From Dehalococcoidia bacterium (GTDB taxonomy: Bacteria > Chloroflexota > Dehalococcoidia > Plut-88900): a DNA stretch of 64,000 bases. The notes beneath the pieces are model-generated. The model saw only the letters and a list, made by a program, of their open reading frames with translations. It was not told the DNA's origin and made no database searches. The translations under genes and the position numbers were made by a program. The DNA lies in the NCBI GenBank assembly GCA_965207225.1, contig CBDBLV010000001.1, forward strand, positions 64,001 to 128,000, given 5' to 3'. This document shows, one piece after another, positions 2,914-62,819 of the stretch; position 1 is the stretch's first letter, and every line of letters begins with the position of its first letter.

Positions 2914-2948
2914 TTGACAGGCAAACATTTGAGCCTTATATTTGTTCT
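2914..2948 (+). promoter_or_regulatory. Sigma70-type promoter with LexA-like half site
   Basis: TTGACA (2914-2919), 17 nt, TATATT (2937-2942); ATATTTGTTCT (2938-2948) overlaps the -10. Confidence 0.65.
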
Positions 2949-3166
2949 AAGTCTAGACCCGACACCAACCTTAAGGAGGAACCAAAAACCCAGGGAAGCC
3001 CCCGAGACCCGACCCGAGGACTCAACGCCCTAGCCCATCCCAACGGCCCCGCGCAGGCCCGAGGCTCAAGCTGTCGTTACCCAAGATCTTTGAGCCAGGT
3101 TACCCACGAACATTGAGCCACCCTGAACGCCGATGATACGGATTATGACAGGATGCTATCGGCGGT

Positions 3167-3961
3167 TCAATCACCTCCCTTCTTGCCGAGGATTTTGGCC
3201 ACTTTGCCCAGTAGGGCGCGGTGAGGAGAGAGCCTCTCCCGGTAGCTGGTGCCCTCGATGACGATCTGGTAGCTGGTGTTGGCCAGACGGTCCAGGGCGC
3301 TGTTGCCCAGGATGGGATCGTTGAAGAGGCCGAGCCACTCCTCGATGGCGCGGTTGGAGGTGATGACGAAGCTGGAGGCCCGATGCTTGCCGACGATGAG
3401 CTGGTAGAGGTCCGATGACTGTTGTGCGTTGAGACGGTGCAGGCCCAGGTCGTCGAGGATGAGCAGGTCGGGGGAGAGGAAGGAGCGGAAGGCTTTGTCC
3501 ACCGAGTTGTCCACCCTGGCTTGGGACATGGCTTTGAAGAAGTCGTATGCGTGGATGAAGCGGACGGAGTATCCGGCTCTGACGGCGGCGTAGCCGAGGG
3601 CCTGGGCCAGGAAGCTCTTGCCGACGCCCGCCGGTCCCATGAGCAGGACGTGCTCGTGCCTGGGGATGAAGTCCAGGGAGAAGGCGGCGTCAAGGAGGCG
3701 GCGGTCCAGGGTGATTTCGGACGTCCAGTCGAAGTCCTCCAGGCGGCAGGTCTCCTCGAAGCCGGCCCGGTTCAGGCGGGTCTCGATGCGCCGGTTCTCC
3801 CTGCGGCTGACCTCGTCGGCTAGGATGATCTCCAGGAAGGCGGCATAGTCCAACTGGTCCCTTCGGGCCAGGGCGATGCGCTCGGGCAGGGTGTCCAGCA
3901 TGCCGCTGAGCTTGAGGGTCTTGAGCAGCGGGGCCAGATCGACGTTGCGGTTGCGGGTCAT
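3167..3961 (-). CDS. istB: IS21 helper AAA+ ATPase IstB
   Basis: GPAGVGKS Walker A, LLILDDLG Walker B, ITSN, ALDRL; start overlaps istA stop. Confidence 0.95.
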   Translation of the reverse strand: MTRNRNVDLAPLLKTLKLSGMLDTLPERIALARRDQLDYAAFLEIILADEVSRRENRRIETRLNRAGFEETCRLEDFDWTSEITLDRRLLDAAFSLDFIPRHEHVLLMGPAGVGKSFLAQALGYAAVRAGYSVRFIHAYDFFKAMSQARVDNSVDKAFRSFLSPDLLILDDLGLHRLNAQQSSDLYQLIVGKHRASSFVITSNRAIEEWLGLFNDPILGNSALDRLANTSYQIVIEGTSYRERLSPHRALLGKVAKILGKKGGD

Positions 3962-5538
3962 AGCGTAACTCCTTCGGTTGGGTGATGGCCGTTGACCAGG
4001 GCGAAGACGGAGCCGGGCCTGGCGAAGCGCCCCGGCGGTATGAGGTCGGCAAGGGGCGGCGCATCCTGCTGCTCCAGGGCTTCAACCAGGATGCGCTCGA
4101 CGCGGTGCACGTCGATGAGGTCCACGTCCAAGGCCTTGCGGCAGGCGTCGTTCAGCCGGTCGGGGGTGTAGCGCTGGGCGAGGCGGAGCAGCTTGTGTCC
4201 CTGCCGCACCTTGGCCCAAGGCGTGGGGCCTTCGAAGAGCCGGTCGGCGAAGGCGGCCACCGCCTCTCCCAGCTCCGCCGCGCTCTGCTTGATCTTGTCG
4301 GGCCCTCGCAGGGTGTAGGCGATGAACTCCTTTGGGTAGTCGTCGGTGTCGGTGGAGCGTTTGCCCCTGGGCTGACGGGGATGGACCTTGATCAGCTTGC
4401 CCCGGTGGTAGATGCGCACCAGCTTGCTGTCCAGCGCGATCTCCACCTGCTGCCCCGGAGGGCACAGGGCCGACGGCACCGAGTAGAGGGCGTGCTGGCA
4501 GGTCACGTGGTGGTCGCGCTGCACCTTGGCGTTGCGCCAGCGGGTAACCTCGTAGGGATCGCCGTCCCAGGGCAGCAACGTCTGGCGCTCCTCTGTGTCG
4601 AAGACCTCCACGGGCTTGCGCCTGGTGGTGCCGTGCACCCGCTGTCCGGCCACCTCACGGCACCAGTGGAGCGCTTCCTTCCGCATGTGAGGCAGGTCCC
4701 TGAAGGAGGCTCCCTTGAAGAAGCGCTCTCTCACGTACTGGACTCCCCGCTCCACCTTGGGCTTATCCCTGGGGTGGCGCACCCGGGCCGGGTCGGTGAT
4801 GAAGCCCCGGCGCTGCGAGTACTCCAGGAAGCCCCTGGTCAGCCTGGGGTGCAGGGCGTCGGCCCCGGCCACCGCCGCCGGGAAGTTGTCGATGACCAGG
4901 TACTTGGGTATGCCGTCGAAGAAAGCCCAGGCCGCCTCCAGTCCGGCGACCACGTCCTCCAGCTTCTGCCCGTGGGTGGGCCAGACGAAGCTGTGCCGCG
5001 AGTAGGCCAGCACCACGATCAGCGCCCACACCGTCCGGCGGCGTCCCGTCTCCGGGTCCTCCAGCGGCCCCAGCCGACCGAAGTCCAGCTCCGCCACCTC
5101 GCCCGGAGGACTCTCCTCCATCCGCACCGTCCGAAGACTGCGGCCTCGCCAGTTGCGGCGGGCCACGAAGCGCTGTAACGACGAATAGGGCACATCGCAG
5201 CCCCGCTCCAAGAGCAACTCCCGGATGCGGGTCAGTTGCAGCCGGTCCCCGATGAGCCACTGCTGAATCTGGTCGGCCCAGGGGGACAGCCTCTCCTCTA
5301 TGGGCATCTTGGTCTGCCGCGGTCCCGCACGGCCGATGGCCGCCAGCTTGCTCAGCTGCTCCTCGCTGGGACCCGGTCCGTCCCGGGACAGCCCCAACCT
5401 CTCCGCCGAGGAGATGTATTTGACCACCGTGTTCCGGGACAGGCCCGTCCCAGTCGCTATGTGGCGCTGGCTCTCTCCAGCCTGCCAGCGCCGGATGACT
5501 TCTTCTATCTCCACTCTGAGTACCTCCTTGTAGGCCAT
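3958..5538 (-). CDS. istA: IS21 DDE transposase IstA
   Basis: N-terminal HTH, ELDFG, LVIDN, PRDKPKVERGV, HGTT motifs. Confidence 0.95.
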   Translation of the reverse strand: MAYKEVLRVEIEEVIRRWQAGESQRHIATGTGLSRNTVVKYISSAERLGLSRDGPGPSEEQLSKLAAIGRAGPRQTKMPIEERLSPWADQIQQWLIGDRLQLTRIRELLLERGCDVPYSSLQRFVARRNWRGRSLRTVRMEESPPGEVAELDFGRLGPLEDPETGRRRTVWALIVVLAYSRHSFVWPTHGQKLEDVVAGLEAAWAFFDGIPKYLVIDNFPAAVAGADALHPRLTRGFLEYSQRRGFITDPARVRHPRDKPKVERGVQYVRERFFKGASFRDLPHMRKEALHWCREVAGQRVHGTTRRKPVEVFDTEERQTLLPWDGDPYEVTRWRNAKVQRDHHVTCQHALYSVPSALCPPGQQVEIALDSKLVRIYHRGKLIKVHPRQPRGKRSTDTDDYPKEFIAYTLRGPDKIKQSAAELGEAVAAFADRLFEGPTPWAKVRQGHKLLRLAQRYTPDRLNDACRKALDVDLIDVHRVERILVEALEQQDAPPLADLIPPGRFARPGSVFALVNGHHPTEGVTL

Positions 5539-6181
5539 CGCGGCACCTCCTTATCAAGTGCTGCAATGGTCTAAGCTGGGGCGCTCAGGGTGGCTCAAAG
5601 ACCCTGGTTATCTGGCTCAATGTTAGTGGGTATTGTGGCTCAATGTTCCTGGGTATTGACAAAGCCGAAGGTGTTATCTCCTCAACACGGGTCCCGTGCC
5701 CCTTCCCTGCCCCCCAGGCGATGGAAAGACGTTCTGGCCTAAGCTGTTCCCGTCAGGCCTAACCCCGCAGAAGCGGGCCCAGGCCTTGCCCCAGGCGCGT
5801 TGGTGGCGCGCCAAGTGGGCCGGCGTCGATATGGCGTCCGGCGGCAGTAACCTTCCGTTCCTGCTCACCACAGGAGCAGGTATGGCCGTAACCTGATTGA
5901 ACACGGCTGATAGAATTTCATTCCTACGGCCCCTGGGCCGGTGCGCCTCTCCCCTGGGCGCATGTCTAAAATCTGCCCGAATGGGAACAGGGGCACAGCC
6001 TCCGGCCAGCGTCTTCCATCGCCGACCCAAAACCCGACAAACAGAACGAAAACCGGAAACCCCACAACCGAATAGAGACCCGGCCTGCCGGGCAGACCCC
6101 CACCCTTCCCCCTCCCCCCGACCCGGTGATAAAATCACCTTTGGCCCTCGGTACTCCCTTTAGCTAAGGTGTCTGCCTCTC

Positions 6182-9079
<2,898 letters not shown>

Positions 9080-15221: not shown

Positions 15222-16013
15222 CTATTCCTGCGGCAAATAATTGCGCGGCAACTCCGCACCGACCGCCGCCCTCACGTATATAACCTCCCCGGATATGTGG
15301 CTCCCCTCCTCCGACGCCAGGAATACGCACAGGTTGCCTATGTCCTCGGACCTCACCATCCTGCCCAGCGGCATGCCCTTGTCAACCTCTTCGAAGGTGT
15401 CTTTGCCCGTGGTCCGGGATATCCCTCCCCATGCCATGTCCGTCGGTACGAGACCCGGGTTCACCGCGTTCACCCGCACCCCCTGGTACCGCTCCTCCTT
15501 CGCCACCCCTTTGGCCAGTGCATCAATCGCTGCCTTGGCCGCGTTGTAGTCCGAGTCATTTGCCATCAGCATGTCCGTGCTTCGGGACGAAATGAGGATT
15601 AAGTCTCCCCTTACGTTGTTCCTCAGGTGTGGAAGCGCCGCCCGGGAGCAGTTGAACGCCCCTATAAGGTGGTTCCGGATCGTGTAGGCGAACTCGTCGT
15701 GGGTAAGCTCGATAAGCGGCTTCCCGTGTCCCTTGGTTCCCGCATTCGCCACCATGATGTCCAGCTTCCCGAACCTCGACACCGTCTCCTCCACCATCGA
15801 CTCCACCTCCCCGTAGTCCCCCACATCCGCCTTCATGGCGACCGCCGTTCCTCCCGCCGCCTCTATGTCCGCCACCACCTCCGCTGCGGGCCCCGGCGAC
15901 TTGAAGTAGTTCACAACTACCTTCGCCCCCTCACGGGCCATGCACCTGGCTATCCCGGAGCCTATACCCCTGGAACCCCCGCTTACTATCGCTACTCTTC
16001 CTTGCAGTCTCAT
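15222..16013 (-). CDS. SDR-family oxidoreductase
   Basis: SGGSRGIG, NAG, ISS, YNAAK. Confidence 0.92.
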   Translation of the reverse strand: MRLQGRVAIVSGGSRGIGSGIARCMAREGAKVVVNYFKSPGPAAEVVADIEAAGGTAVAMKADVGDYGEVESMVEETVSRFGKLDIMVANAGTKGHGKPLIELTHDEFAYTIRNHLIGAFNCSRAALPHLRNNVRGDLILISSRSTDMLMANDSDYNAAKAAIDALAKGVAKEERYQGVRVNAVNPGLVPTDMAWGGISRTTGKDTFEEVDKGMPLGRMVRSEDIGNLCVFLASEEGSHISGEVIYVRAAVGAELPRNYLPQE

Positions 16014-16059
16014 ATTTCCCCTGTCTTATCTTTGTGTTTTTCTTACCTCGTGGTAACGC

Positions 16060-16869
16060 TTAAGCCGAGTAATAGGGCTTTGGCCCGTTCACGTAGAAAG
16101 AGGGCGGCTCTCCCCCCACCGCACCCCGCACATATATCACCTCGCCCGAGATGTGACTCCCCTGCTCCGATGCCAGGAATGTACACAGGTTCCCGATGTC
16201 CTCCGGCCTCATCATCCGCCCAAAGGGCATCACTTTGTCCACCTCCTCGACGCTGTCCTTGCCCGTGGTTGCCATCAGCTCTTCCATCAGGATGTCCGTC
16301 GGGACCAGGCCCGGCGCCACCACATTCACCCGTATCCCGTTGTAACGTTCCTCTTTCGCAAGTCCTTGCGCCATGCCGTCCATCCCCGCCTTTGCAGCGT
16401 TATACGGCGAGGAGTTTGGTGGGAAGAAGTCGGTCTGCCGGGACGAAATGAATATGATGTCGCCCCTCTCCTGCTCTCTCATGTGGTGCAGCAGGCAGTG
16501 TGAAGTGTTGAATGACCCTATCAGGTGATTGTTGACAACCCCTTCAAATTCCTCGGGTGTGATATCTGCCATCGGGCCGTATGGCCCCGCTATGCCCGCG
16601 TTGTTCACCAGGATGTCCACCTTGCCGAACTCCGCTATCGATCGCTCCACCATAGACTTCACCTGTGCATAGTTCCCCACGTCCGCCTGGATCGCAATCG
16701 CCCGACCCCCCTTCCCCTGGATCCCTTCCACCACCTCGTTCGCCAGCCTTTCCGACTGCACGTAGTTCACCACCACCGCCGCCCCCTCCTCCGCCATGCA
16801 CCGCGCTATCCCCGCCCCGATTCCTCGTGACCCGCCCGTGACCAGTGCTACCCGACCTTCCAGTCTCAT
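16060..16869 (-). CDS. SDR-family oxidoreductase
   Basis: TGGSRGIG, NNAG, ISS, YNAAK; ATG 16869 overlaps the upstream stop. Confidence 0.92.
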   Translation of the reverse strand: MRLEGRVALVTGGSRGIGAGIARCMAEEGAAVVVNYVQSERLANEVVEGIQGKGGRAIAIQADVGNYAQVKSMVERSIAEFGKVDILVNNAGIAGPYGPMADITPEEFEGVVNNHLIGSFNTSHCLLHHMREQERGDIIFISSRQTDFFPPNSSPYNAAKAGMDGMAQGLAKEERYNGIRVNVVAPGLVPTDILMEELMATTGKDSVEEVDKVMPFGRMMRPEDIGNLCTFLASEQGSHISGEVIYVRGAVGGEPPSFYVNGPKPYYSA

Positions 16870-17687
16870 ATTCCACTCCTCTGCGACGCCGATGAGAAGA
16901 ACTCCTGCGTCGGCTTTCTGTCCTGCGATGCGTCCACGTAGATCACCTGCCCCGAGATATGACCCCCCGCCTCCGACGCCAGGAACGCACACAGGTTACC
17001 CGTGTCCCGGGGTTGGGCTATCCGACCCAACGGCAGGTATGGGTCAACCTCCCTGAAGCTGGAGAAGCCGTACCTCTTCAACAGACCCGTGGCCATGTCC
17101 GTCTCCGTAGTCGTCGGCGCTATAACGTTCACCCGGATCCCGTGGCCCTGCTCCTCCTTCGAAAGCACCCGGCCCATCACTTCTATGCCTGCCTTGGCCA
17201 CGTTGTAGGAGGTCAGCCCCACGGGGAGCATCTTCGCGTTCGTAGATCCTATCAGTTGGATGTCCCCCCGGGCCTGCACCCTCATGTGCGGCAATACCGC
17301 CTGCACACAGGTGAATGCCCCCATTATGTGGTTCTCAATGACCTCCCGAAACTCTTCCAGGTCCGCCTCGTGTACGTGGCTGTCCCGACGTATGATCCCC
17401 GCATTGCAGACCAGGATGTCTACCTTCCCCAACCCCTCCACCCCTGCCCCGACCATCGCCTTTACCGCATCCACGTCCCCCACGTCTGCCCTGTAAGTAA
17501 GAGCCCTACGGCCCAACGCCCGAATTTCCTCGGCCGTGGCTTCTGCGGCCGTCGCATTGCTCACGTAGTTCACCATCACGTCAGCGCCGGCCTCAGCCAT
17601 AGCTAGCGAGATCGCCTTCCCAATCCCCCGGGACCCGCCCGTCACCAGGGCAACCCGCCCTTCCAACGACCTTCCCGAATCAGTCAT
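16866..17687 (-). CDS. SDR-family oxidoreductase
   Basis: TGGSRGIG, CNAG, IGS, YNVAK. Confidence 0.92.
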   Translation of the reverse strand: MTDSGRSLEGRVALVTGGSRGIGKAISLAMAEAGADVMVNYVSNATAAEATAEEIRALGRRALTYRADVGDVDAVKAMVGAGVEGLGKVDILVCNAGIIRRDSHVHEADLEEFREVIENHIMGAFTCVQAVLPHMRVQARGDIQLIGSTNAKMLPVGLTSYNVAKAGIEVMGRVLSKEEQGHGIRVNVIAPTTTETDMATGLLKRYGFSSFREVDPYLPLGRIAQPRDTGNLCAFLASEAGGHISGQVIYVDASQDRKPTQEFFSSASQRSGI

Positions 17688-17796
17688 TATTTGATCTTCT
17701 CTCCTGTCATACAGCGGCCCTCCCCAATGTCATTCCGATGCCCTGCGAGGAATCTGGGGTGGGGCTCCCCTCCTGGCAAAGGCCTCCCACCCATGC

Positions 17797-18603
17797 CTAC
17801 CTCTGCGCCCGGGCCTCGGGCGTCACGAACTCCCGCAGCGACGACGGCCCTATGCCGCAGTCTAGGTAGATCACCTGCCCCGACACATGGCTGGCCTTGT
17901 CACTGCAGAGCCATACGCACATGTTCCCCACGTCGTAGGGCTGGATCAGCCTGTCGAAGGGCACTATGCCGTCCAGGTTCCGGGGGTCGTCTATCTGTGC
18001 CCAGTCCAGCACCAGCTTCAACCCCATGTCCGACTCCACGATGGTCGGTGCAATGGCGTTCACCCGGATCCCGTGCCAGCTCAGCTCCTTGGATATCGTC
18101 TTAACGAACGTCCCCATCCACGCCTTCGCGCTGGCATAGGCCCATTCGTCGGGCCACAGCTGCTGAGTCGCCAGCGAGCTTATAAAGTGGATGTCGCCCC
18201 TTTTCTGCTCCTTCATGTGCGGCAGTACCGCCTGCGTGCAGTAGAACGACCCCGCAATGTGAGTCCCGTAAACATCGTGGAACACGGCCATCGCATCTTC
18301 TGCCATTATCGACTTCGAATAATGCTGACCGGCGTTGTTGACCAGGATGTCCACCCGACCGAAGGTCGCAATGGTCTCGTCCACCATCGCCTGCACCTCG
18401 TCGTAGTTCTGCACGTTGGCCTGGTACAGCAGCGCCTTCCTCCCCCGGGCCTCGACGTCCGACGCCGTCTGCTCCGCACCCTCCTTGTTGCGTTGGTAGT
18501 TCACCACAATGTCCGCCCCTTCATCCGCCATGCTCTGCGCAATCCCCTGGCCTATGCCCCGGGACGCCCCCGTTATCAGCGCAACTCTTCCTTCAAGCTC
18601 CAT
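17797..18603 (-). CDS. SDR-family oxidoreductase
   Basis: TGASRGIG, NNAG, ISS, YASAK. Confidence 0.92.
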   Translation of the reverse strand: MELEGRVALITGASRGIGQGIAQSMADEGADIVVNYQRNKEGAEQTASDVEARGRKALLYQANVQNYDEVQAMVDETIATFGRVDILVNNAGQHYSKSIMAEDAMAVFHDVYGTHIAGSFYCTQAVLPHMKEQKRGDIHFISSLATQQLWPDEWAYASAKAWMGTFVKTISKELSWHGIRVNAIAPTIVESDMGLKLVLDWAQIDDPRNLDGIVPFDRLIQPYDVGNMCVWLCSDKASHVSGQVIYLDCGIGPSSLREFVTPEARAQR

Positions 18604-18628
18604 GATTAGCCTCCAAATTGCTCCTTGG

Positions 18629-19390
18629 TCACCGCGCCATCCCACCGTCCAGATGAATAACGTGCCCCGAGATATACCCCCCGTCCTCCGACGCCAGGAA
18701 TGCTGACAGCTTCGCTATGTCCTCCGGCTGGCACACCCTCCCGAACGGGTAGTCCGGGTATATATCCTTGATGTCGTCGACGCCCTGGGTCGCCTTCACC
18801 AGCCTCTTCCCCATCTCCGTCTCCACCAGCCCCGGCGCTATTACGTTCACCCGTATCCCGTGCTGGCGCTCGTCCTTCGCCATCGACATCGCCAATGCTT
18901 CCAGGCACGCCTTTGCCGTGGCGTAAGGCCCGTGCCCAGCCTCCGCCCTGAACGGCGACGTCGACGAAATGAAATGCACGTCCCCCCGACTCCGCTCCCG
19001 CATCCCGGGCAACAACGCCCTTGCGAAATGCAGCGCTCCGAAAAGGTGCACGTCCAGCACCCGGCGCATCTCCCTCGGCTCAGTCTCTCCCAGGTGGTTC
19101 CCCCGGGAAGCGACCCCCGCATTGCACACCAGGATGTCTACCCCACCGAACAACTCGATAGCCTCCGACACCATGGCCTCCACCGCAGCGTTGTCCGTCA
19201 CATCCGTCTGTCGGGCCAGCACCCGACGCCCTAACCCTTCGATCTCCGCCGCTGTCTCCCGCGCCGACTCCTCATCCTTGCGATAATTGAACGCCACGTC
19301 CGCACCCTGCGCGGCCAGCTCCAGGGCCACCGCTTTCCCGATGCCCCGGTTGCCGCCTGTGACTATGGCTGCTCTGCCTTTCAGCTTCAT
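18629..19390 (-). CDS. SDR-family oxidoreductase
   Basis: TGGNRGIG, CNAG, ISS, YATAK. Confidence 0.92.
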   Translation of the reverse strand: MKLKGRAAIVTGGNRGIGKAVALELAAQGADVAFNYRKDEESARETAAEIEGLGRRVLARQTDVTDNAAVEAMVSEAIELFGGVDILVCNAGVASRGNHLGETEPREMRRVLDVHLFGALHFARALLPGMRERSRGDVHFISSTSPFRAEAGHGPYATAKACLEALAMSMAKDERQHGIRVNVIAPGLVETEMGKRLVKATQGVDDIKDIYPDYPFGRVCQPEDIAKLSAFLASEDGGYISGHVIHLDGGMAR

Positions 19391-19421
19391 TTCTGGGGTG
19401 TCCTCCAGGACGGCCCAAATA

Positions 19422-25821: not shown

Positions 25822-25862
25822 AGGGGTGTGATGGTGTGGGGAAGTCCAGTCTTCTCTCTCCC

Positions 25863-25887
25863 GTAGGGGCGACCCGCCGGTCGCCCT
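25863..25887 (+). repeat. GTAG-type REP palindrome
   Basis: GTAGGGGCGACC-CGCC-GGTCGCCCT. Confidence 0.8.
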
Positions 25888-25954
25888 GGGGAGGTGGGTG
25901 GCCCACGCATCTACGGATTCTCGCATGCTTCCACCACCAAACCGCACCCCTCCA

Positions 25955-26715
25955 TGTCACCCCGAGGCCCCGCGAAGAATCTCCAGCACACCTCCCTAAA
26001 CCCACCCCTGCAATCCCACTCACCCCTCCCCCCCTTGGCAAAGACATACCAAAAATGCACTGCATTCTTGGTATGTCAATAAATCAGGGCGGGTGGTCGG
26101 GACTCCATTTAGTCCGGGGGGATAGGGAGAAGCGCTCCCCCTCCCTCCCAGTACTGAACTAGAGGCCCACGTGGGTGCGTCGCACCCACGTGGGCCTCTG
26201 TTCTTTTTCATTCCCTCTCCCTCGATGGGAGAAGGTTAGGGTGAGGGTGAGACGAGTGCCGAGAGACCAGTCATGCAAAGCCCTCTTAGTGGCCCTATGG
26301 GAGAGGGAGACCAAAAGGGGTAAGGATTCCCGCCCTCGGCGGCGGGGATGCTTCTGGACCCCGTCGCCTCTGCCATCTCCAAGCACGCCCTATTGTGTCA
26401 TCCCGAGGCCCCGCGAGGGATCTCCAGCACCCCTCCCCAAATCCACTTCTATTTCACACCGCTCCCGGCCGTTCCCCCTTGCCAACGAATTACCAGAAAT
26501 TTGCCGAGGCAAATTTCTGGTAATTCAAAAGACCGGGCGGGCGGGTGGGACTCATATTATTTCCGGGGGGTTGGGAAGGGCACTCTTCCCTTCCCCCAGT
26601 ACCAAACTAGAGGGAAGCGCCTGCGCCATGGCGCAGGCGCTTCCCTCTGTTTTTTCCTCCCCCTCTCCCTTACAGGCCCTAAGGGAGAGGGGGAGGAAGG
26701 GGGAGAGGGTTCCCT
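25955..26715 (+). repeat. Two tandem composite repeat units (about 440-bp period), each with two long palindromes
   Basis: Units start GTCA(C/T)CCCGAGGCCCCGCGA..ATCTCCAGCAC near 25956 and 26397; palindromes 26043-26077, 26161-26199, 26487-26526, 26609-26648. Confidence 0.75.
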
Positions 26716-26815
26716 CGTGGGGCTGGGGGTATCCCTCCCCCCAACAAATCAGACCAATCCGTCAATCCCATGAAGCACAGTTCAGATATTCCTCCCAAAA
26801 GCCGCACATTTGCTC

Positions 26816-26865
26816 TTGACACATCTGTCCGGCAGTACTATCATATCCTGCGACAGAACAAATAT
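26816..26865 (+). promoter_or_regulatory. Sigma70-type promoter with LexA-like boxes
   Basis: TTGACA (26816-26821), 17 nt, TATCAT (26839-26844); GCAC-ATTT-GCTC just before the -35 and AGAACAAATAT (26855-26865). Confidence 0.65.
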
Positions 26866-27640
26866 CTCACTATCAAAGGAGGAAACCAAAACCCAGGGAA
26901 ACCCCCGAGACCCGACCCAAGGCATCGCCCCCGAGAAATCGGGGGACTCAACGCCCTAACCCATCCCAATACCTATCTCCTCTCTTGTAGGGGCGACCGG
27001 CCAATCGCCCCCCTTGCGAGGCAGGCAGGTTGCGGCACAAGCGACAGCGTTATCCCCGAGACGTCGGGGACGCCACCTCCTCATCCCACGGGTCTCGTGC
27101 CCCCTTCCCTGTCCCCCGGGCGATGGAAAGACGCCCTGGATAGAAGCCAAGCAGACCGGCCATCCCCCGCCGAGAGACCGTCTCGGAGGTCGGTCTGTAG
27201 CGAACTTGCGCTATATCAAGATAGGGGTGGCGGGCTGGCTAGCCCCGCTCCGGACAAGTTACCGGTGGTTGGCCCGTCGGCGAGCTTACGCCACACCGAA
27301 TCAAGCATAACCTGGGGTCGCTGGGGCACTCGGGACCTGCGGGTGCGCCACGTAATAGAAACTCCCGGGGGCTAACGGCCCGATCACTGGCCCTCACTGC
27401 GCCCTGAGGGCGCCTGGGAGCGGGTCAAGGCCCGGCTGTCCGCCCGAACAGCCGGAGCACAAATCGAGCAGAAGGGTGCGGCCGGCTGCAATCCGCCCCC
27501 GGCGGACCTCCATGGCCCCGGACAGCTGGAACACCGCATGGTAGGGACCACCGGCTCACCAGGTGCGTCTTCCATCGCCGCCCCAAAACCCAACAGACAG
27601 ACCCAAAACCCGAAACCCCACAACTGAATAAAAACCCGGC
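26851..27640 (+). ncRNA. Candidate large structured RNA, copy 2 (about 790 nt)
   Basis: CAGGGAA/TTCCCTG (26894-26900/27105-27111), CGAGACCCG/CGGGTCTCG (26906-26914/27089-27097), GGCGATGGAAAGACG/CGTCTTCCATCGCC (27119-27133/27566-27579); A/C-rich tail shared with copy 1. Confidence 0.55.
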
Positions 27641-27809
27641 GTGTCACCAGCCTTCCGAACGAGTACACCCCTTGAACCCGACACCCAACACCCTGTACAA
27701 TCGCCCCCGCAGCCGACCGCGAGCGGCGGTAAGCATCTACCGGGCAACCCTACAAAAAGCCCAATGGCCGGTATCATCGGGAACCGGACCGGGCGCTGAA
27801 TAGCATCTT

Positions 27810-28817
27810 GTGAACCCTCGCGGTCGGTTTGCGAGGGTTTTGTTGTACGACACGATAACCGACGTACCCGGCATCCGGGTGGGCCACTACACTGACTCCG
27901 AGGCCGTCACCGGCTGCACCGTAGTCCTCGCCCTTGAGGGCGCAGTCGCAGGCGTCGACGTACGGGGTGCGGCCCCCGGCACCCGTGAGACCGACCTCCT
28001 CCGACCCCTCAACCTCGTCCAGGAGGCCCACGCCGTCGTCCTCAGCGGTGGCAGTGCCTACGGTCTCGCTGCCGCCGACGGTGTGATGACCTGGCTCGAA
28101 GAGCAGGGAGTCGGCTTTCCCGTGGGCGTGGGTGTCGTTCCTATCGTCGCCTCCGCCATCCTTTTCGACCTCGCCATCGGCGACCCCACCACCCGCCCCC
28201 GCCCCGAGCACGGCTACCAGGCCAGCGCTGCCGCCGATTCTTCCGCCCCGGCCCAGGGCTCCGTAGGTGCAGGCACGGGCGCAACCGTAGGTAAGGCCCT
28301 CGGCCAGGAACGCGCCGTCAAGGGTGGCCTCGGGTGCGCCAGCCGACGCGTGGGCGAATACACCGTCGGGGCCCTCGTCGCAGTCAATGCCCTCGGCAGT
28401 GTCGTAGACGCCGAAACAGGTGAAGTCATCGCCGGCCCCCGTGAACCGAGCGGTCTCGGCTTCCTGGACAGCGTAGACATCCTGGAAGACGTGAAGACTC
28501 CCGTTGCGGCCTCGGCCCTCCAGAACACCACCCTCGCCGTCGTCGCCACCGACGCCCCTCTCACCAAGGAGCAGGCCAACAAGCTCGCCCAGATGGCCCA
28601 CGACGGACTCGCCCTTGCCATCCGACCCGCCCACACCATGTTTGACGGCGACGTCGTATTCGCACTGTCCACAGGCAAAGCCGTCCCCGTCCCCGACGTC
28701 ACCCCCTTCGGCGCCGCCGCCGCCCGGGCCCTCAGCAGCGCCATTGTCAAAGCCCTAACCCACGCCTCTAGCCTCGGAGGCGTCCCCTCAATCACATGCC
28801 TAAACCAGAACTCGTAA
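27810..28817 (+). CDS. P1/S58-family (DmpA/NylC-like) self-processing hydrolase
   Basis: ITDVPGIRVGH, VDVRGAAPGTRET, LSGGSAYGL, GSVGAGTGA, QNTTLAVVATDA, HTMFDGD; start may be slightly downstream. Confidence 0.9.
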   Translation: MNPRGRFARVLLYDTITDVPGIRVGHYTDSEAVTGCTVVLALEGAVAGVDVRGAAPGTRETDLLRPLNLVQEAHAVVLSGGSAYGLAAADGVMTWLEEQGVGFPVGVGVVPIVASAILFDLAIGDPTTRPRPEHGYQASAAADSSAPAQGSVGAGTGATVGKALGQERAVKGGLGCASRRVGEYTVGALVAVNALGSVVDAETGEVIAGPREPSGLGFLDSVDILEDVKTPVAASALQNTTLAVVATDAPLTKEQANKLAQMAHDGLALAIRPAHTMFDGDVVFALSTGKAVPVPDVTPFGAAAARALSSAIVKALTHASSLGGVPSITCLNQNS

Positions 28818-31629: not shown

Positions 31630-31700
31630 TTCATCTTTCGGCCTCCGAGCCGGAACCTATCTCTGGGCAGGGCGGGGGTGAAGTCCTGCCCCCTCTCCCC

Positions 31701-31816
31701 AGTACCAAACTAGAGGCATACGCCTGCGCCGAGGCGCAGGCGTATGCCTCTGTTTTTTCCTCCCCCTCTCCCTTAAAGGCCCTAAGGGAGAGGGGGATCG
31801 AGGGGGTGAGGGTTCC
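31701..31816 (+). repeat. Dispersed double-hairpin repeat, copy d
   Basis: AGTACCAAACT + palindrome 31712-31751 + T-tract + second hairpin. Confidence 0.85.
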
Positions 31817-31892
31817 TCCGGTGGCGTGGGGTGATTTGAGATATCCCGCAACCCGCGATACCCTTCTTCATATCCCTCCGGAGGTAACCACC

Positions 31893-59194: not shown

Positions 59195-59215
59195 TCCCTA
59201 TCCCTCATACCTCCC

Positions 59216-59240
59216 GTAGGGGTGACCGGCGGGTCGCCCT
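59216..59240 (+). repeat. GTAG-type REP palindrome
   Basis: GTAGGGGTGACC-GGCG-GGTCGCCCT. Confidence 0.75.
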
Positions 59241-59282
59241 CCCCGGTACGGGCCCCTCTCACCCTAGGTATGGAACTCAGAA

Positions 59283-61085: not shown

Positions 61086-61924
61086 CCTACAAACTCCTCG
61101 CCCTCGATATCGACGGCACCATCTACGAACGTATTACCGATACTTCCCTCACCGAGCGAACAAAGCGGGCCATCGCCCGTGTCATGGAGACCGGCGCGGG
61201 CGTTACCCTTGCCACTGGACGCACCTACAACTCCGCCCTCCATTTCAGCCGGGACCTGGGTCTCACCCTCCCCATCATCTGCTACCAGGGCTCCTTCACG
61301 TCCAACCCCGTCACGCATGAAATAGTCCGCGAGACCCCCGTCCCCCTACCCCTCGCCCATCGCCTCATACGCCTGCTCAAGGCCCAGGGACTGAACCCCT
61401 ATGTCTACGTCCGGGACCATTTCTACGTGCAGGAAATTACCGAGGCCGTCCGCCAATCGGAGAAATACCTCAAGATTAAGGCTGAACTCCTGACCGACCT
61501 CATCCGCGACGTAACCGAACCACCCACCAAGATAGTCGTCACCGGCGACGCCGAGGTCATCGGTGGTGTCCAGGCCTTGGTCGATTCCCACTTCAACGGC
61601 GACATCGCCGCCATGCACACCTACGACTACCTCTGCGAAATCGGCCACCCCGACGGCAGCAAGGGCGCAGCCCTCCAGCACCTCGCCGACTCCCTCGGCG
61701 TGAAGAGAGAGGAAGTCGTCGCCGTCGGCGACAGCCCCAACGACGTCGACATGATCCAGTGGGCGGGACTCGGCGTGGCCATGGGCAACGCCCCCGACAA
61801 GGTCAAGTCTTCTGCCGACCACGTCACCCTCCCCGCCTCCAACCACGGCGTAGCCCTCCTCCTCGAAACCCTCCTCTCCGAAAACCGCTTCACCCCCCTC
61901 CCCTTTCCCCGAGTACCAAACTAG
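61082..61924 (+). CDS. Cof-type HAD-IIB hydrolase
   Basis: ALDIDGT, LATGR, SKG, GDSPND, AMGNA. Confidence 0.92.
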   Translation: MTYKLLALDIDGTIYERITDTSLTERTKRAIARVMETGAGVTLATGRTYNSALHFSRDLGLTLPIICYQGSFTSNPVTHEIVRETPVPLPLAHRLIRLLKAQGLNPYVYVRDHFYVQEITEAVRQSEKYLKIKAELLTDLIRDVTEPPTKIVVTGDAEVIGGVQALVDSHFNGDIAAMHTYDYLCEIGHPDGSKGAALQHLADSLGVKREEVVAVGDSPNDVDMIQWAGLGVAMGNAPDKVKSSADHVTLPASNHGVALLLETLLSENRFTPLPFPRVPN

Positions 61925-62026
61925 AGGCAGACGCCTGCGGCTTGGCGCAGGCGTCTGCCTCTGTTTTTCCTCCCCCTCTCCCTTGAAGGTCCTAAGGGAG
62001 AGGGAGACCAAGGGGGTGAGGGTTCC
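61912..62026 (+). repeat. Dispersed double-hairpin repeat, copy e
   Basis: AGTACCAAACT + palindrome 61923-61962 + T-tract + second hairpin, between convergent genes. Confidence 0.85.
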
Positions 62027-62042
62027 CTGGGGCTGTGAGGGG

Positions 62043-62819
62043 CTACCTTCCCGTAAACTCCGGCTCCCGCTTCTCCATGAAAGACCTCCTCCCCTCCTGC
62101 GCATCCTCCGAGTCCGATACCGGCTTTTCTATCAACGTCTGCAGCGTCAGACCCCTCTCCCAGTCGATAAACGCATTCATCGACTGCTTCATGTACGCTA
62201 TCGACGTCGTCGCCCCCTTGGCTAGACGCTCGGCCCATTCCGCCACAGCGTTATCTAGCTCCTCGGCGGGCACGGCCTTGTTCACCAGCCCAATCCGCTC
62301 CGCTTCCGTGCCGCTTATCCAGTCTCCCAGGAACAGTATTTCGCACGCCCGCCGGTACCCTACTGCCGTCAAAATAGAGAACGTCCCCGACGCCAACCCG
62401 CGTTGCACATACGGTATTCCCAGCCTCGCATCCTCCGCCGCAATAACCAGGTCCGCCCCCAGCGCCACCTCGAACGCCCCGCCCAGCGCGTACCCGTGAA
62501 GCTGAGCGATCACCGGCTTAAGGAAACCCCGTAGCGCCTTCACCATCCCCGGCGGCCCCTGCAGCTGCGCCGATAGCGAGTCCGTCGCTATCCTTCGCGA
62601 TGTCTTTCCCATCCCCTTCAAGTCATCCCCCGCACTGAACGCCCGACCCTCCCCCTTCAGCACCAGCACCCGCACATCCGGGTCCGACGCCGCATCCGCC
62701 AGGGCATCCAGCATCTCGTCGAAAGTCTGGTGGTTCAGCGCATTCAGCTGCTTCGGCCTGTTCAGTATAATCGTCGCAATTCCATCGGTCTTCTCATAGA
62801 GGATTAACTCATATTCCAT
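62043..62819 (-). CDS. Enoyl-CoA hydratase/isomerase family protein
   Basis: LNRPKQLNAL, AFSAGDDL, KPVIAQLHGYALGG, EAERIGLVN, FMEKREPEF. Confidence 0.93.
   Translation of the reverse strand: MEYELILYEKTDGIATIILNRPKQLNALNHQTFDEMLDALADAASDPDVRVLVLKGEGRAFSAGDDLKGMGKTSRRIATDSLSAQLQGPPGMVKALRGFLKPVIAQLHGYALGGAFEVALGADLVIAAEDARLGIPYVQRGLASGTFSILTAVGYRRACEILFLGDWISGTEAERIGLVNKAVPAEELDNAVAEWAERLAKGATTSIAYMKQSMNAFIDWERGLTLQTLIEKPVSDSEDAQEGRRSFMEKREPEFTGR

Follow-up and report, generated by a model that had tools for sequence, protein, structure and literature searches.

Upstream of a gene for a peptidase of family S58, the window (the whole 64,000-nt stretch of DNA that was analysed) holds a plus-strand element, at 26816-27640, in which a promoter, a Shine-Dalgarno-like sequence, two folded domains, and an A/C-rich tail follow one another up to a short terminal module that abuts the -35 box of the peptidase gene's own promoter (Table 1). 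The element's promoter agrees with the consensus at 11 of 12 positions (the promoter scan found 2 sites versus 0.3 expected) and would place the start of transcription near 26851. Comparison of filled with empty sites puts the beginning of the element about 30 to 45 nt before its own -35 box. Past its core, helix II of this copy extends through one bulged A and then CCTGG/CCAGG. The terminator-like hairpin further upstream is a member of a separate 153-nt repeat family (D1), which has 4 copies in the window and lies upstream of several copies of the element.

Table 1. Features of the focal locus (copy 2) and of copy 1, with positions in the window
Feature	Position	Strand	Basis
Terminator-like hairpin, 19-bp stem then T6; outside the element proper	26608..26649	+	terminator scan
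Element 5′ terminal region, before the -35 box; 5′ boundary approximate	26770..26815	+	conserved within promoter types
Element promoter, sigma-70-type TTGACA-17-TATCAT, type A	26816..26844	+	promoter scan
Shine-Dalgarno-like AAGGAGG without start codon; candidate 5′ stabiliser	26876..26882	+	read in sequence
Domain I, nested hairpin closed by P1 and P2, optional hairpin modules inserted	26894..27111	+	fold and inverted-repeat scan
P1, CAGGGAA / TTCCCTG	26894-26900 / 27105-27111	+	read in sequence
P2, CGAGACCCG / CGGGTCTCG	26906-26914 / 27089-27097	+	inverted-repeat scan
Domain II, long-range helix II around the T2 interior	27119..27579	+	helix arms 27119-27139 with 27559-27579
Helix II core, GGCGATGGAA / TTCCATCGCC	27119-27128 / 27570-27579	+	inverted-repeat scan
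Tail, A/C-rich, G-poor, unstructured, ending ..CACAACTGAATAAAAA; candidate Rho loading (rut) site	27580..27636	+	composition, fold
3′ terminal module CCCGGCGTGTCACC..CCGAACGAGTACACCCC, abuts the next gene's -35 box	27637..27671	+	absent at empty orthologous sites
Native promoter of downstream gene, TTGAAC-18-TACAAT, outside the element	27672..27701	+	promoter scan; genome comparison
Downstream gene, peptidase family S58; true start maybe slightly further downstream	27810..28817	+	PF03576, 3.5e-59
Copy 1, 5′ part: type C promoter, AAGGAGG 2973-2979, start of domain I	2914..3071	+	sequence, nhmmer
IS21-family insertion sequence splitting copy 1	3072..5661	-	istA-like 3961-5538, istB 3170-3961
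Copy 1, 3′ part: rest of domain I, domain II, tail	5662..6090	+	interior type T5

Copy 1, which is followed by uvrA (6182-9079), is interrupted by an insertion sequence assigned to the IS21 family by its IstB (PF01695 at 7e-58), the rve domain of its IstA-like protein, and its terminal inverted repeats; the insertion is flanked by a 4-bp AAGC duplication (3068-3071 and 5662-5665). The helix II arms of copy 1 (5717-5731 and 6010-6023) enclose 278 nt, versus 432 nt in copy 2, and the tails of the two copies are 87% identical over 79 nt. All the sequence features listed in the original prediction (promoter, AAGGAGG, helices, tail, and shared interior words) are present at both loci, and its view that the copy at 2914-3071+5666-6083 had been split by an IS21 element is confirmed by the protein domains, terminal repeats, and duplication just described.

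Size, anatomy, and distribution of the family

The locus had been described as a two-copy RNA gene. A genome-wide search returned 89 BLAST matches and iterated nhmmer at least 40 copies, such that the two loci instead belong to a dispersed family that combines three types of promoter with about 11 types of interior and whose members are placed with reference to the promoters of unrelated downstream genes. The iterated search recovered 40 tails in the genome, each matched by a same-strand 5′ module 240 to 820 nt upstream (3.1 kb in the one copy split by the insertion sequence), and all 40 copies carry TTGAC[ATC] at 59 to 65 nt before AAGGAGGA as well as both arms of helix II; one extra copy has a degenerate tail. 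The promoter types account for 17, 12, and 11 copies. The interiors are interchangeable (the focal copy has type T2), making the family a mosaic of promoter types by interior types; domain I is 70 to 308 nt long depending on the copy, and the protein-less cassettes measure 0.35 to 0.8 kb.

The family was detected in a single genus-level group of uncultured Dehalococcoidia: it occurs in 8/8 congeners and in 0/145 other genomes of the class, as assessed by covariance-model (CM) search and BLAST of relatives, in which two matches lying outside the genus, at E 6.4e-4, were treated as noise. A scan of GTDB species genomes gave matches in Dehalococcoidia MAGs only.

Fold, transcription, and coding potential

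No known RNA family accounts for the element, as had been supposed from the sequence: at the gathering threshold only a tRNA passes in the entire window, and at E ≤ 10 over 26600-27900 the only Rfam models overlapping 26816-27640 are mir-593 (20.6 bits, against a gathering score of 100) and two lower microRNA models. Eleven representatives spanning all interior types produced no Rfam match at E ≤ 0.01 (an intact locus, L063, of the same interior type T5, stood in for the split copy 1), and none reached the threshold for a family of Rfam 15, including OLE, GOLLD, ROOL, HEARO, raiA, Chloroflexi-1, and the riboswitches. Literature searches found no paper on this repeat family.

Nor was an ORF common to the copies found, in agreement with the original prediction that none is conserved. 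In the focal copy, no match to any of 12 frames was better than E 0.028 in Pfam or E 0.3 in PHROGs, and 95 open frames (≥55 aa) taken from the 11 representatives yielded no Pfam matches and one PHROGs match (E 0.0094, function unknown). A search of the genome (92% complete) for the Terminase_6N domain likewise gave no match at E ≤ 0.01. Open frames vary in strand and length between copies of the same interior type, and no ATG, GTG, or TTG lies 4 to 16 nt after AAGGAGG in any of 40 copies. The T2 alignment lacks codon phase (280/306/286, p 0.53); only 4 of its 38 gap runs are multiples of 3, and 25 of 38 distinct runs are 1 to 2 nt long. A decayed or cryptic protein-coding gene would find some encouragement in the weak codon-phase asymmetry of the T1 alignment (357/326/247), but 27 of 35 distinct gap runs in that alignment are likewise 1 to 2 nt long, and with the database results, the inconstant frames, and the missing start codons, we regard such a gene as highly improbable.

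By contrast with codon structure, base pairing is well maintained. The T2 fold comprises 120 pairs, with 97.8% of cells paired versus 34 to 46% when partners are slid, and the T1 fold comprises 80 pairs, with 97.7% paired versus 41 to 48%; compensatory change on both sides affects 10 pairs in T2 (shuffle mean, 4.4) and 8 in T1 (shuffle mean, 4.2), values reached in 0/500 shuffles in either case, with the proviso that both structures were predicted from the alignments on which they were tested and that the copies are related, which inflates these controls. Compensatory change is present, if modest; in the scaffold helices (P1, P2, and the core of helix II), variation is too slight to offer covariation evidence either way. 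Many pairs are invariant or alternating G-U pairs, which on the opposite strand are A-C mismatches, and the fold z-score is -2.8 for the plus strand versus -1.6 for the minus strand. Together with the compensatory changes, these G-U pairs indicate that what is selected is an RNA folded from the plus strand and not a DNA palindrome.

Contigs from one metatranscriptome run cover 27124-27594, among them one of 255 nt (6 mismatches, 2 gaps). This run is a single study, derives from a relative (about 97% identity), and its contigs give neither strand nor level, so that the transcription anticipated for the locus is weakly shown. In the same run, the downstream gene, the tail, domain I (26808-27110), and, outside a short repeat at 26204-26247, the upstream flank have no cover or a depth no greater than ~1; because contigs break at repeats and the run is from a relative, we did not use these gaps as evidence.

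Both ends of the putative transcript have recognizable features. Across 40 tails of 65 nt, composition is 40.5% A, 40.5% C, 12.2% G, and 6.8% T (A+C, 81%), and the tail is unpaired in the predicted fold. Rho utilization (rut) sites are unstructured stretches of ~60 to 80 nt that are C-rich and G-poor; the tail has these properties, and the genome has a Rho gene, making the tail a candidate site. A strong hairpin with a T-run follows helix II within 260 nt in 13/39 copies, by a crude rule of our own. At the other end, AAGGAGG is complementary to the 3′ end of the host 16S rRNA (..CACCTCCTTTCT), and a genome search found a gene for RNase J and none for RNase E/G. The arrangement resembles the STAB-SD of Bacillus thuringiensis cry3A, in the description of which (PMC4113751) a Shine-Dalgarno-like sequence near the 5′ end, complementary to 16S rRNA and serving no translation start, occurs in a host with RNase J; AAGGAGG with that complementarity and with start codons downstream in 0/40 copies has the sequence of a STAB-SD. 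There the STAB-SD is part of a single mRNA's leader, whereas here the sequence heads a repeated non-coding RNA, for which it is a candidate stabiliser by analogy.

Probable mobility and placement against host promoters

Orthologous sites differ in whether they hold an element. It precedes the S58 peptidase gene in 6/9 genomes, recA in 3/9, nusA in 4/9, an amidohydrolase gene in 3/9, and lgt at 8/10 loci, in both clades of the genus; the interior type at the same site differs between species. In one clean filled/empty pair, the lgt insertion is flanked by the 6-bp GCGGAT, and a second clean insertion (L194), where the A/C-rich tail is joined to an A/C-rich target, has an imperfect repeat of ~11 nt at its flanks; no duplication is readable in the other pairs. 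A scan of 26765-27672 detected no terminal inverted repeats, only internal helices, and the one inverted pair found end to end (11 nt, 82%) is not terminal. Neither a transposase nor an autonomous partner sharing the ends of the element turned up in this genome (92% complete), where the 40 module pairs keep the spacing given above in all but the IS21-split copy, and what we call insertion could for that reason be, in part, deletion or gene conversion. When the element flanks of relatives were mapped to this genome, 21/33 pairs looked non-collinear, a count that carries no claim, since left flanks often hold other repeat families and best hits are unreliable. Separately, the junction word CCACAACYGAAYA was considered as a general recombination site and dropped, having only 25 matches, 21 of them inside elements.

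Of the two options raised originally, a structured RNA or a transcribed non-autonomous element, the latter fits these observations better. One form of it is a purely selfish, MITE- or SINE-like element whose hairpins serve transposition, DNA recombination, or retro-copying, whose promoter is incidental or drives a transposition intermediate, and whose RNA has no function in the cell. Many copies restricted to one genus, presence/absence polymorphism, mosaicism, the possible 6-bp target duplication, and the tail-to-target junction at L194 would all be expected of it, as might the reverse transcriptase genes at 4 loci of the genome. None of these loci adjoins an element, however; terminal inverted repeats are lacking, the G-U pairs and compensatory changes suggest a selected plus-strand fold, and long invariant stretches persist across 9 species. 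Moreover, a transcript would exclude its own upstream promoter, so RNA-mediated copying leaves the promoters retained in 40/40 copies unexplained. We consider a purely selfish element quite unlikely. The original prediction had also pointed to protein genes that might co-occur; neither IscB, TnpB, nor any other protein gene is associated with the elements.

Elements point at the next gene: according to our own crude gene caller, the downstream gene is co-directional in 36/39 cases and the upstream gene in 18/40, with 38/42 and 18/40, respectively, in relatives. The 39 downstream ORFs all proved to be genuine genes without relation to one another (among them uvrA, recA, gyrB, rpoB, nusA, rpsO, leuS, def, lgt, and katG), with functions in DNA repair, transcription, translation, and varied metabolism that do not form the functional grouping typical of riboswitches. 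Promoter-like sites occur 90 to 99 nt after helix II in 15/33 hits and, under a strict rule, start at +84 to +98 in 17/82 elements; in the remaining elements, other repeats lie between element and gene. In seven filled/empty comparisons, the insertion ends 0 to 15 nt before the host -35 box, and the host promoter is conserved at filled and empty sites alike (that of the S58 peptidase gene in 9/9 genomes, 3 of them without the element). The clean insertion L194 has no adjoining promoter. To our knowledge, insertion at the edge of a -35 box in fixed orientation has not been described for bacterial elements; it would call for a new mechanism of targeting or else for strong selection on transcription close to the promoter.

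Such placement might also suit a portable cis-regulatory leader, in which the element supplies a second, distal promoter and a structured 5′ UTR of 0.6 to 0.9 kb, its interior acting as a sensor and its tail as a Rho-dependent attenuator. The strict co-orientation with the next gene, the fixed register with the host promoter, and the retention of the lgt element in both clades speak for a leader, as do the rut-like tail in a host with Rho and the lack, by our rule, of an intrinsic terminator between tail and gene in 26/39 copies. Against this, the genes are unrelated in function and keep their own promoters whether or not an element is present, a strong terminator-like repeat stands behind the tail in the other 13/39 copies, and no riboswitch or leader family matches; a change of interior type between close species at one gene is, furthermore, unexpected for a gene-specific sensor. 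On balance, a leader strikes us as unlikely.

A probable family of structured-RNA cassettes and its relation to known systems

We think it probable, with some reserve, that the locus belongs to a family, restricted to one genus, of mobile, self-promoted, protein-less structured-RNA cassettes that number at least 40 in this genome. Support was found for the original characterization of the locus as a non-coding, structured plus-strand element driven by a promoter, in which the scaffold is conserved and the interior varies. Under the cassette reading, each copy would be its own transcription unit, expressed from a near-consensus sigma-70 promoter, and its plus-strand RNA would start about 25 nt before a perfect anti-16S AAGGAGG that lacks a start codon and then fold into two helix-closed domains, I, whose length varies, and II, which holds any one of about 11 interiors, followed by the ~60-nt A/C-rich tail. 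The RNA would be made as a stable non-coding RNA, AAGGAGG binding the 30S subunit and, like a STAB-SD, protecting the 5′ end against RNase J; its 3′ end would be set by Rho loading on the C-rich tail, by analogy with known rut sites, or, in about a third of copies, by the intrinsic-terminator repeat after the tail. As DNA, cassettes appear to behave as non-autonomous mobile or recombining units, intergenic, variably present, exchanging interiors, and pointing at the next gene, with the 3′ end set against the upstream edge of that gene's -35 box, such that transcription from the strong cassette promoter may stop at, or collide with, the host promoter. A bolder version, which we regard as quite unlikely, would make this a new class of mobile element: its sole cargo would be a large, self-promoted, modular structured RNA, and the element would home one-way to the upstream -35 edge of sigma-70 promoters as a portable regulator, the 5′ end of its RNA kept by the 30S subunit, transcription ended by Rho at the host promoter, and the interior setting what is sensed or bound, with dozens of housekeeping promoters (rpoB, nusA, recA, gyrB, uvrA, and others) rewired as a result.

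If the cassette reading is true, about 1 in 100 genes in these widespread soil bacteria, core genes such as rpoB, nusA, recA, gyrB, and uvrA among them, has a strongly promoted structured-RNA gene of 0.5 to 0.8 kb set against its promoter. It would also join orphan large structured RNAs with mobile promoter elements, which are usually separate fields, and would provide work on covariation and structure with a natural modular RNA system, in which one scaffold takes about 11 interiors and each genome has dozens of paralogs.

Several described systems share part of this profile. Like MITEs and mobile insertion cassettes, the elements are multi-copy, non-coding, lineage-restricted, and present or absent at orthologous sites; in contrast to MITEs, they yielded neither terminal inverted repeats nor an autonomous partner sharing their ends, and they occupy promoter edges in a fixed orientation. 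RNAs of the HEARO type ride on mobile DNA and exist in many copies. With OLE, GOLLD, ROOL, and HEARO (the omega RNA of IS200/IS605), the elements have in common a non-coding RNA of 450 to 800 nt with many conserved helices and no known function. They differ from all four in matching no Rfam model, in occurring about 40 times per genome with a promoter in every copy, in their modular interiors, and in having no IscB or TnpB.

The closest parallels among promoter-bearing repeats are the putative mobile promoters (PMPs), Correia elements, ERIC, and REPIN, which are roughly 100 to 150 bp long (PMC3575422). The cassettes are set apart from these by their size (0.35 to 0.8 kb), by a promoter that would drive their own structured RNA and not simply face outward, by interchangeable interiors and the lack of terminal inverted repeats, and by a fixed register to the host -35 box. 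With these repeats, they share a similar promoter-containing intergenic sequence before unrelated genes, the absence of an encoded protein, and movement that is unknown or trans-dependent (PMC3575422). PMPs are defined by at least 80% identity over a promoter region of at least 50 nt, upstream of non-paralogous genes within one genome (PMC3575422), and promoter families answering to that definition, with 17, 12, and 11 copies, lie here upstream of 39 unrelated genes.

Copy number and modular construction

The element is dispersed through the genome. The original prediction counted two copies; the window's own 4.03-Mb genome yields 89 BLAST matches, and iterated nhmmer searches return 47 matches to the 5′ module and 40 to the A/C-rich 3′ tail. 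Each of the 40 tails has a same-strand 5′ module 240 to 820 nt upstream (3.1 kb in the copy split by an insertion sequence [IS]), and one further copy has a degenerate tail. All 40 carry TTGAC[ATC] 59 to 65 nt before AAGGAGGA and both arms of helix II, the long-range helix that surrounds the interior in domain II. At the two window loci, direct reading recovered every feature originally named, along with the enclosed lengths of 278 nt (copy 1) and 432 nt (copy 2, the focal copy), and scanning of the copy 2 region gave two promoter sites (versus 0.3 expected). The IS21-family element that splits copy 1 encodes an IstB domain (PF01695, 7e-58) and an integrase core resembling IstA; it has inverted repeats at its termini and a duplicated 4-bp AAGC.

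Coordinates in the window of the two element copies and of neighboring features
Feature	Position	Strand	Basis or remark
Promoter, copy 2 (TTGACA-17-TATCAT)	26816-26844	+	Promoter scan, 11/12
AAGGAGG, copy 2	26876-26882	+	Direct reading
P1, nested 5′ hairpin, copy 2	26894-26900 with 27105-27111	+	Inverted-repeat scan
P2, nested 5′ hairpin, copy 2	26906-26914 with 27089-27097	+	Inverted-repeat scan
Long-range helix II, copy 2	27119-27139 with 27559-27579	+	One bulged A
A/C-rich tail, copy 2	End near 27636	+	
Copy 1	2914-3071 plus 5662-6090	+	2.6-kb IS21-family element between halves
153-nt repeat	2694-2846, 26588-26740, 31691-31843, 61902-62054		Terminator-like on + at 26608-26649
Small REP-like repeats	2842-2878, 25858-25894, 26982-27018, 59211-59247; also 17718, 25945, 26386, 62864		
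Promoter of S58 peptidase gene	27672-27701		
S58 peptidase leader	27702-27860		~130 nt
Five-unit tandem	15270-19400	-	Spacing 787-931 nt

By clustering, promoters fall into three families (17, 12, and 11 copies) and interiors into about 11 types (14, 5, 5, 4, 2, 2, 2, 2, 2, 1, and 1 copies), the two combining freely, and tails are uniform; the focal copy joins a type A promoter to a T2 interior, and copy 1 joins type C to T5. Domain I (the nested 5′ hairpin, P1 and P2) measures 70 to 308 nt among copies, enlarged by nested hairpin modules, some of which are small repeats found elsewhere in the genome too. REP-like small palindromes (TAGGGGCGACCGGC..GGTCGCCC and GTCATCCCGAGGCCCCGCGAGGGATCT) occur in the window, and since one such repeat lies inside the focal copy's domain I, this domain tolerates insertions.

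A protein-less unit with a conserved plus-strand fold

As predicted, the element has no Rfam match at gathering or permissive thresholds: the whole window returned tRNA only at the gathering threshold, the focal copy nothing credible at E ≤ 10, and 11 representatives covering all interior types no match at E ≤ 0.01. The expected lack of a conserved open reading frame (ORF) also held, with frames varying in strand and length among copies of one interior type. Twelve frames of the focal copy gave no Pfam match below E 0.028 and no PHROGs match below E 0.3; among 95 open frames ≥55 aa long in the 11 representatives, none matched Pfam and one matched PHROGs (E 0.0094, function unknown). A start codon is found 4 to 16 nt downstream of GGAGG in none of the 40 copies, and the 3′ end of the genome's 16S rRNA is a perfect complement of AAGGAGG. 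A decayed gene is a very improbable reading. Codon phase is absent from the T2 alignment (280/306/286, p 0.53), where 4 of 38 gap runs are divisible by three; the T1 alignment shows an unexplained asymmetry of phases (357/326/247), but no more than 2 of its 35 gap runs are divisible by three. Terminase_6N has no match anywhere in this genome.

Consensus folds were predicted from domain II alignments from nine genomes (17 T2-type and 36 T1-type sequences), and pairs were counted against slid-partner and shuffle controls. With structures taken from these same alignments and copies related to each other, T2 has 120 pairs, with 97.8% of cells paired (34 to 46% with slid partners) and both-side changes in 10 pairs (shuffle mean, 4.4; 0/500 shuffles as high) spanning 38 cells versus 13.3 in shuffles, and T1 has 80 pairs, 97.7% paired (41 to 48%), with both-side changes in 8 pairs (mean, 4.2; 0/500) spanning 26 cells versus 9.6. 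Numerous pairs are either fixed as G-U or switch between G-U and G-C or A-U, and these would be mismatches if read on the other strand or as a DNA cruciform; the folding z-score is -2.8 for the plus strand and -1.6 for the minus strand. P1, P2, and the core of helix II are nearly invariant and thus uninformative on pairing, either way. The helix II extension exists as two alternative sequences, both paired as had been proposed, and the variant follows interior type.

Sequence closely related to domain II occurs in an RNA library: contigs of one metatranscriptome run, from which strand, ends, and level are unreadable, cover 27124-27594, and one of them, 255 nt long, aligns to 27124-27374 at the cost of 6 mismatches and 2 gaps. 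The whole 3 kb is covered by two DNA-like runs.

Placement at host promoters and change between species

Element orientation and register are tied to host promoters. With genes called by our own simple codon-bias caller, elements overlap no gene, the exceptions being the IS of copy 1 and a single dubious ORF. The downstream gene is co-directional in 36/39 cases and the upstream gene in only 18/40; for 43 further elements in relatives, the counts are 38/42 and 18/40, and the two sets are not independent because some sites are orthologous. Pfam domains were assigned to all 39 downstream ORFs, which are mutually unrelated (uvrA, recA, gyrB, rpoB, nusA, rpsO, leuS, Glu/Gln-tRNA ligase, def, lgt, folD, ribF, rnhB, speH, katG, moaA, many hydrolases, and one IS481 transposase). 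This co-directionality favors a portable cis-acting leader or attenuator, an unlikely description overall. In many copies the gene's own promoter lies at a fixed distance, between tail and gene. Under the rule of the scan tool, promoter-like matches within 300 nt number 33, of which 15 start 90 to 99 nt after helix II; such a site lies at +84 to +98 in 17/82 elements. In other copies the tail-to-gene gap is occupied by other repeat families, and by our own rule a strong hairpin plus T-run unit lies within 260 nt in 13/39.

The element is restricted in its distribution, with many copies in all eight other genomes of the genus and none in three genomes representing other genera in the family. 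Of 151 genomes sampled across the class, 6 matched a covariance model built on the minimal scaffold, every one belonging to this genus. Scanning a single genome for each GTDB species for exact 26-mer matches returned 87 stretches; among the matches listed (80 of 87), all were titled Dehalococcoidia MAGs, in eight records, one of which may fall outside the nine genomes studied.

Elements are gained and lost, and their modules exchanged, between species. Orthologous genes have the element in 6/9 genomes at the S58 peptidase (the focal downstream gene), 3/9 at recA, 4/9 at nusA, 3/9 at an amidohydrolase, and at 8/10 lgt loci; in every set having both states, the host gene's promoter is conserved whether the element is there or not. 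The extra DNA stops 0 to 5 nt before the -35 box at S58, nusA, and lgt, and about 12 to 15 nt before it at the amidohydrolase. Four further clean empty sites emerged when the flanking sequences of relatives' elements were placed on this genome; in three of them the insertion ends at a conserved promoter; the insertion at locus L194 is not at a promoter, its A/C-rich tail being joined to an A/C-rich target. In the cleanest filled/empty pair (lgt, congeners G002/G003 versus G004), the 872-nt insertion begins about 35 to 45 nt ahead of the -35 box that belongs to the element and is flanked by GCGGAT at either end. Interior type at lgt differs between this genome and congener G008, although the neighboring protein is 98% identical, so interiors are exchanged between copies. 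A purely selfish reading, in which the folds serve to copy the element and which such gains and losses bring to mind, seems less probable still than a portable leader. Flanks of 33 relatives' elements are non-collinear on this genome in 21 cases, a hint, unproven since left flanks often hold other repeats, that elements may be rearrangement breakpoints. The suggested search for co-occurring reverse transcriptases found four RVT_1 loci (C2:158087-158773, C5:1548409-1549095, C5:1553608-1554405, and C5:1671488-1672288), none adjoining an element; their open frames are 586 to 652 aa, two with identical scores, and they are probably of group II intron type.

Proposed reading, known systems, and neighboring repeats

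The element represents a new kind of repeat, restricted to one lineage and lying close to promoters, with a structured RNA under a promoter of its own; the original interpretation stands as to a noncoding, structured unit without Rfam match and falls as to two copies only. We lean toward a self-promoted structured noncoding RNA cassette, mobile or recombining and promoter-proximal, and would hold any particular role for the RNA with far less confidence. Such a cassette would be transcribed independently. Its AAGGAGG without a start codon may hold a 30S subunit and protect the 5′ end from RNase J, by analogy with STAB-SD of cry3A, where, according to PMC4113751, a 30S-held Shine-Dalgarno-like site shields the 5′ end of the mRNA from that nuclease; an RNase J gene is present in this genome and RNase E/G was not detected in it. 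The G-poor, C-rich, unpaired tail could load Rho, whose gene is present, so that transcription would stop in the ~45 nt before the host -35 box; in copies invaded by other repeats, it would instead end at an intrinsic terminator.

By the working definition in PMC3575422, the element is a putative mobile promoter (PMP) and, like Correia elements, it is a promoter-bearing repeat. Unlike Correia-type repeats, it is several times larger, lacks terminal inverted repeats (inverted-repeat scan), and has a promoter that makes its own large RNA. Orphan large RNAs are alike in size and complexity, but the element matches none of their models. We found no paper on such an element in Dehalococcoidia; published PMP lists may include it.

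Many repeat families seem to make up the intergenic DNA of the genus. A 153-nt repeat (core, a 19-bp GC-rich hairpin and then T6) sits just upstream of both window copies, and units of its kind come after the tails of further copies across the genome. Short units of the TTCAATCAA type (..GTCATTCAATCAAAACAGCTACGAGTTCAATCAACGTTCAATCAA..) are strung together in many of the gaps separating elements from gene starts, as upstream of recA in several species (L080-L084). Behind copy C4_598803, outside the window, lies a 5S rRNA-like sequence (contig C4, ~597,440-597,700) that has a promoter to itself, placing an element upstream of an RNA gene too. The S58 leader, between promoter and coding region, is kept in 9/9 genomes; it has a chance-level Rfam match only (rnk_leader, E 1.5), and a hairpin and T-run (CCCTCGCGG..GCGAGGG TTTTGTTGT) form its 3′ end, making it a possible attenuator or riboswitch-like leader. 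The minus-strand tandem comprises five paralogous units, corresponds to repeat families D2, D3, D5, D6, D9, and D12, and resembles a tandem set of five related genes.
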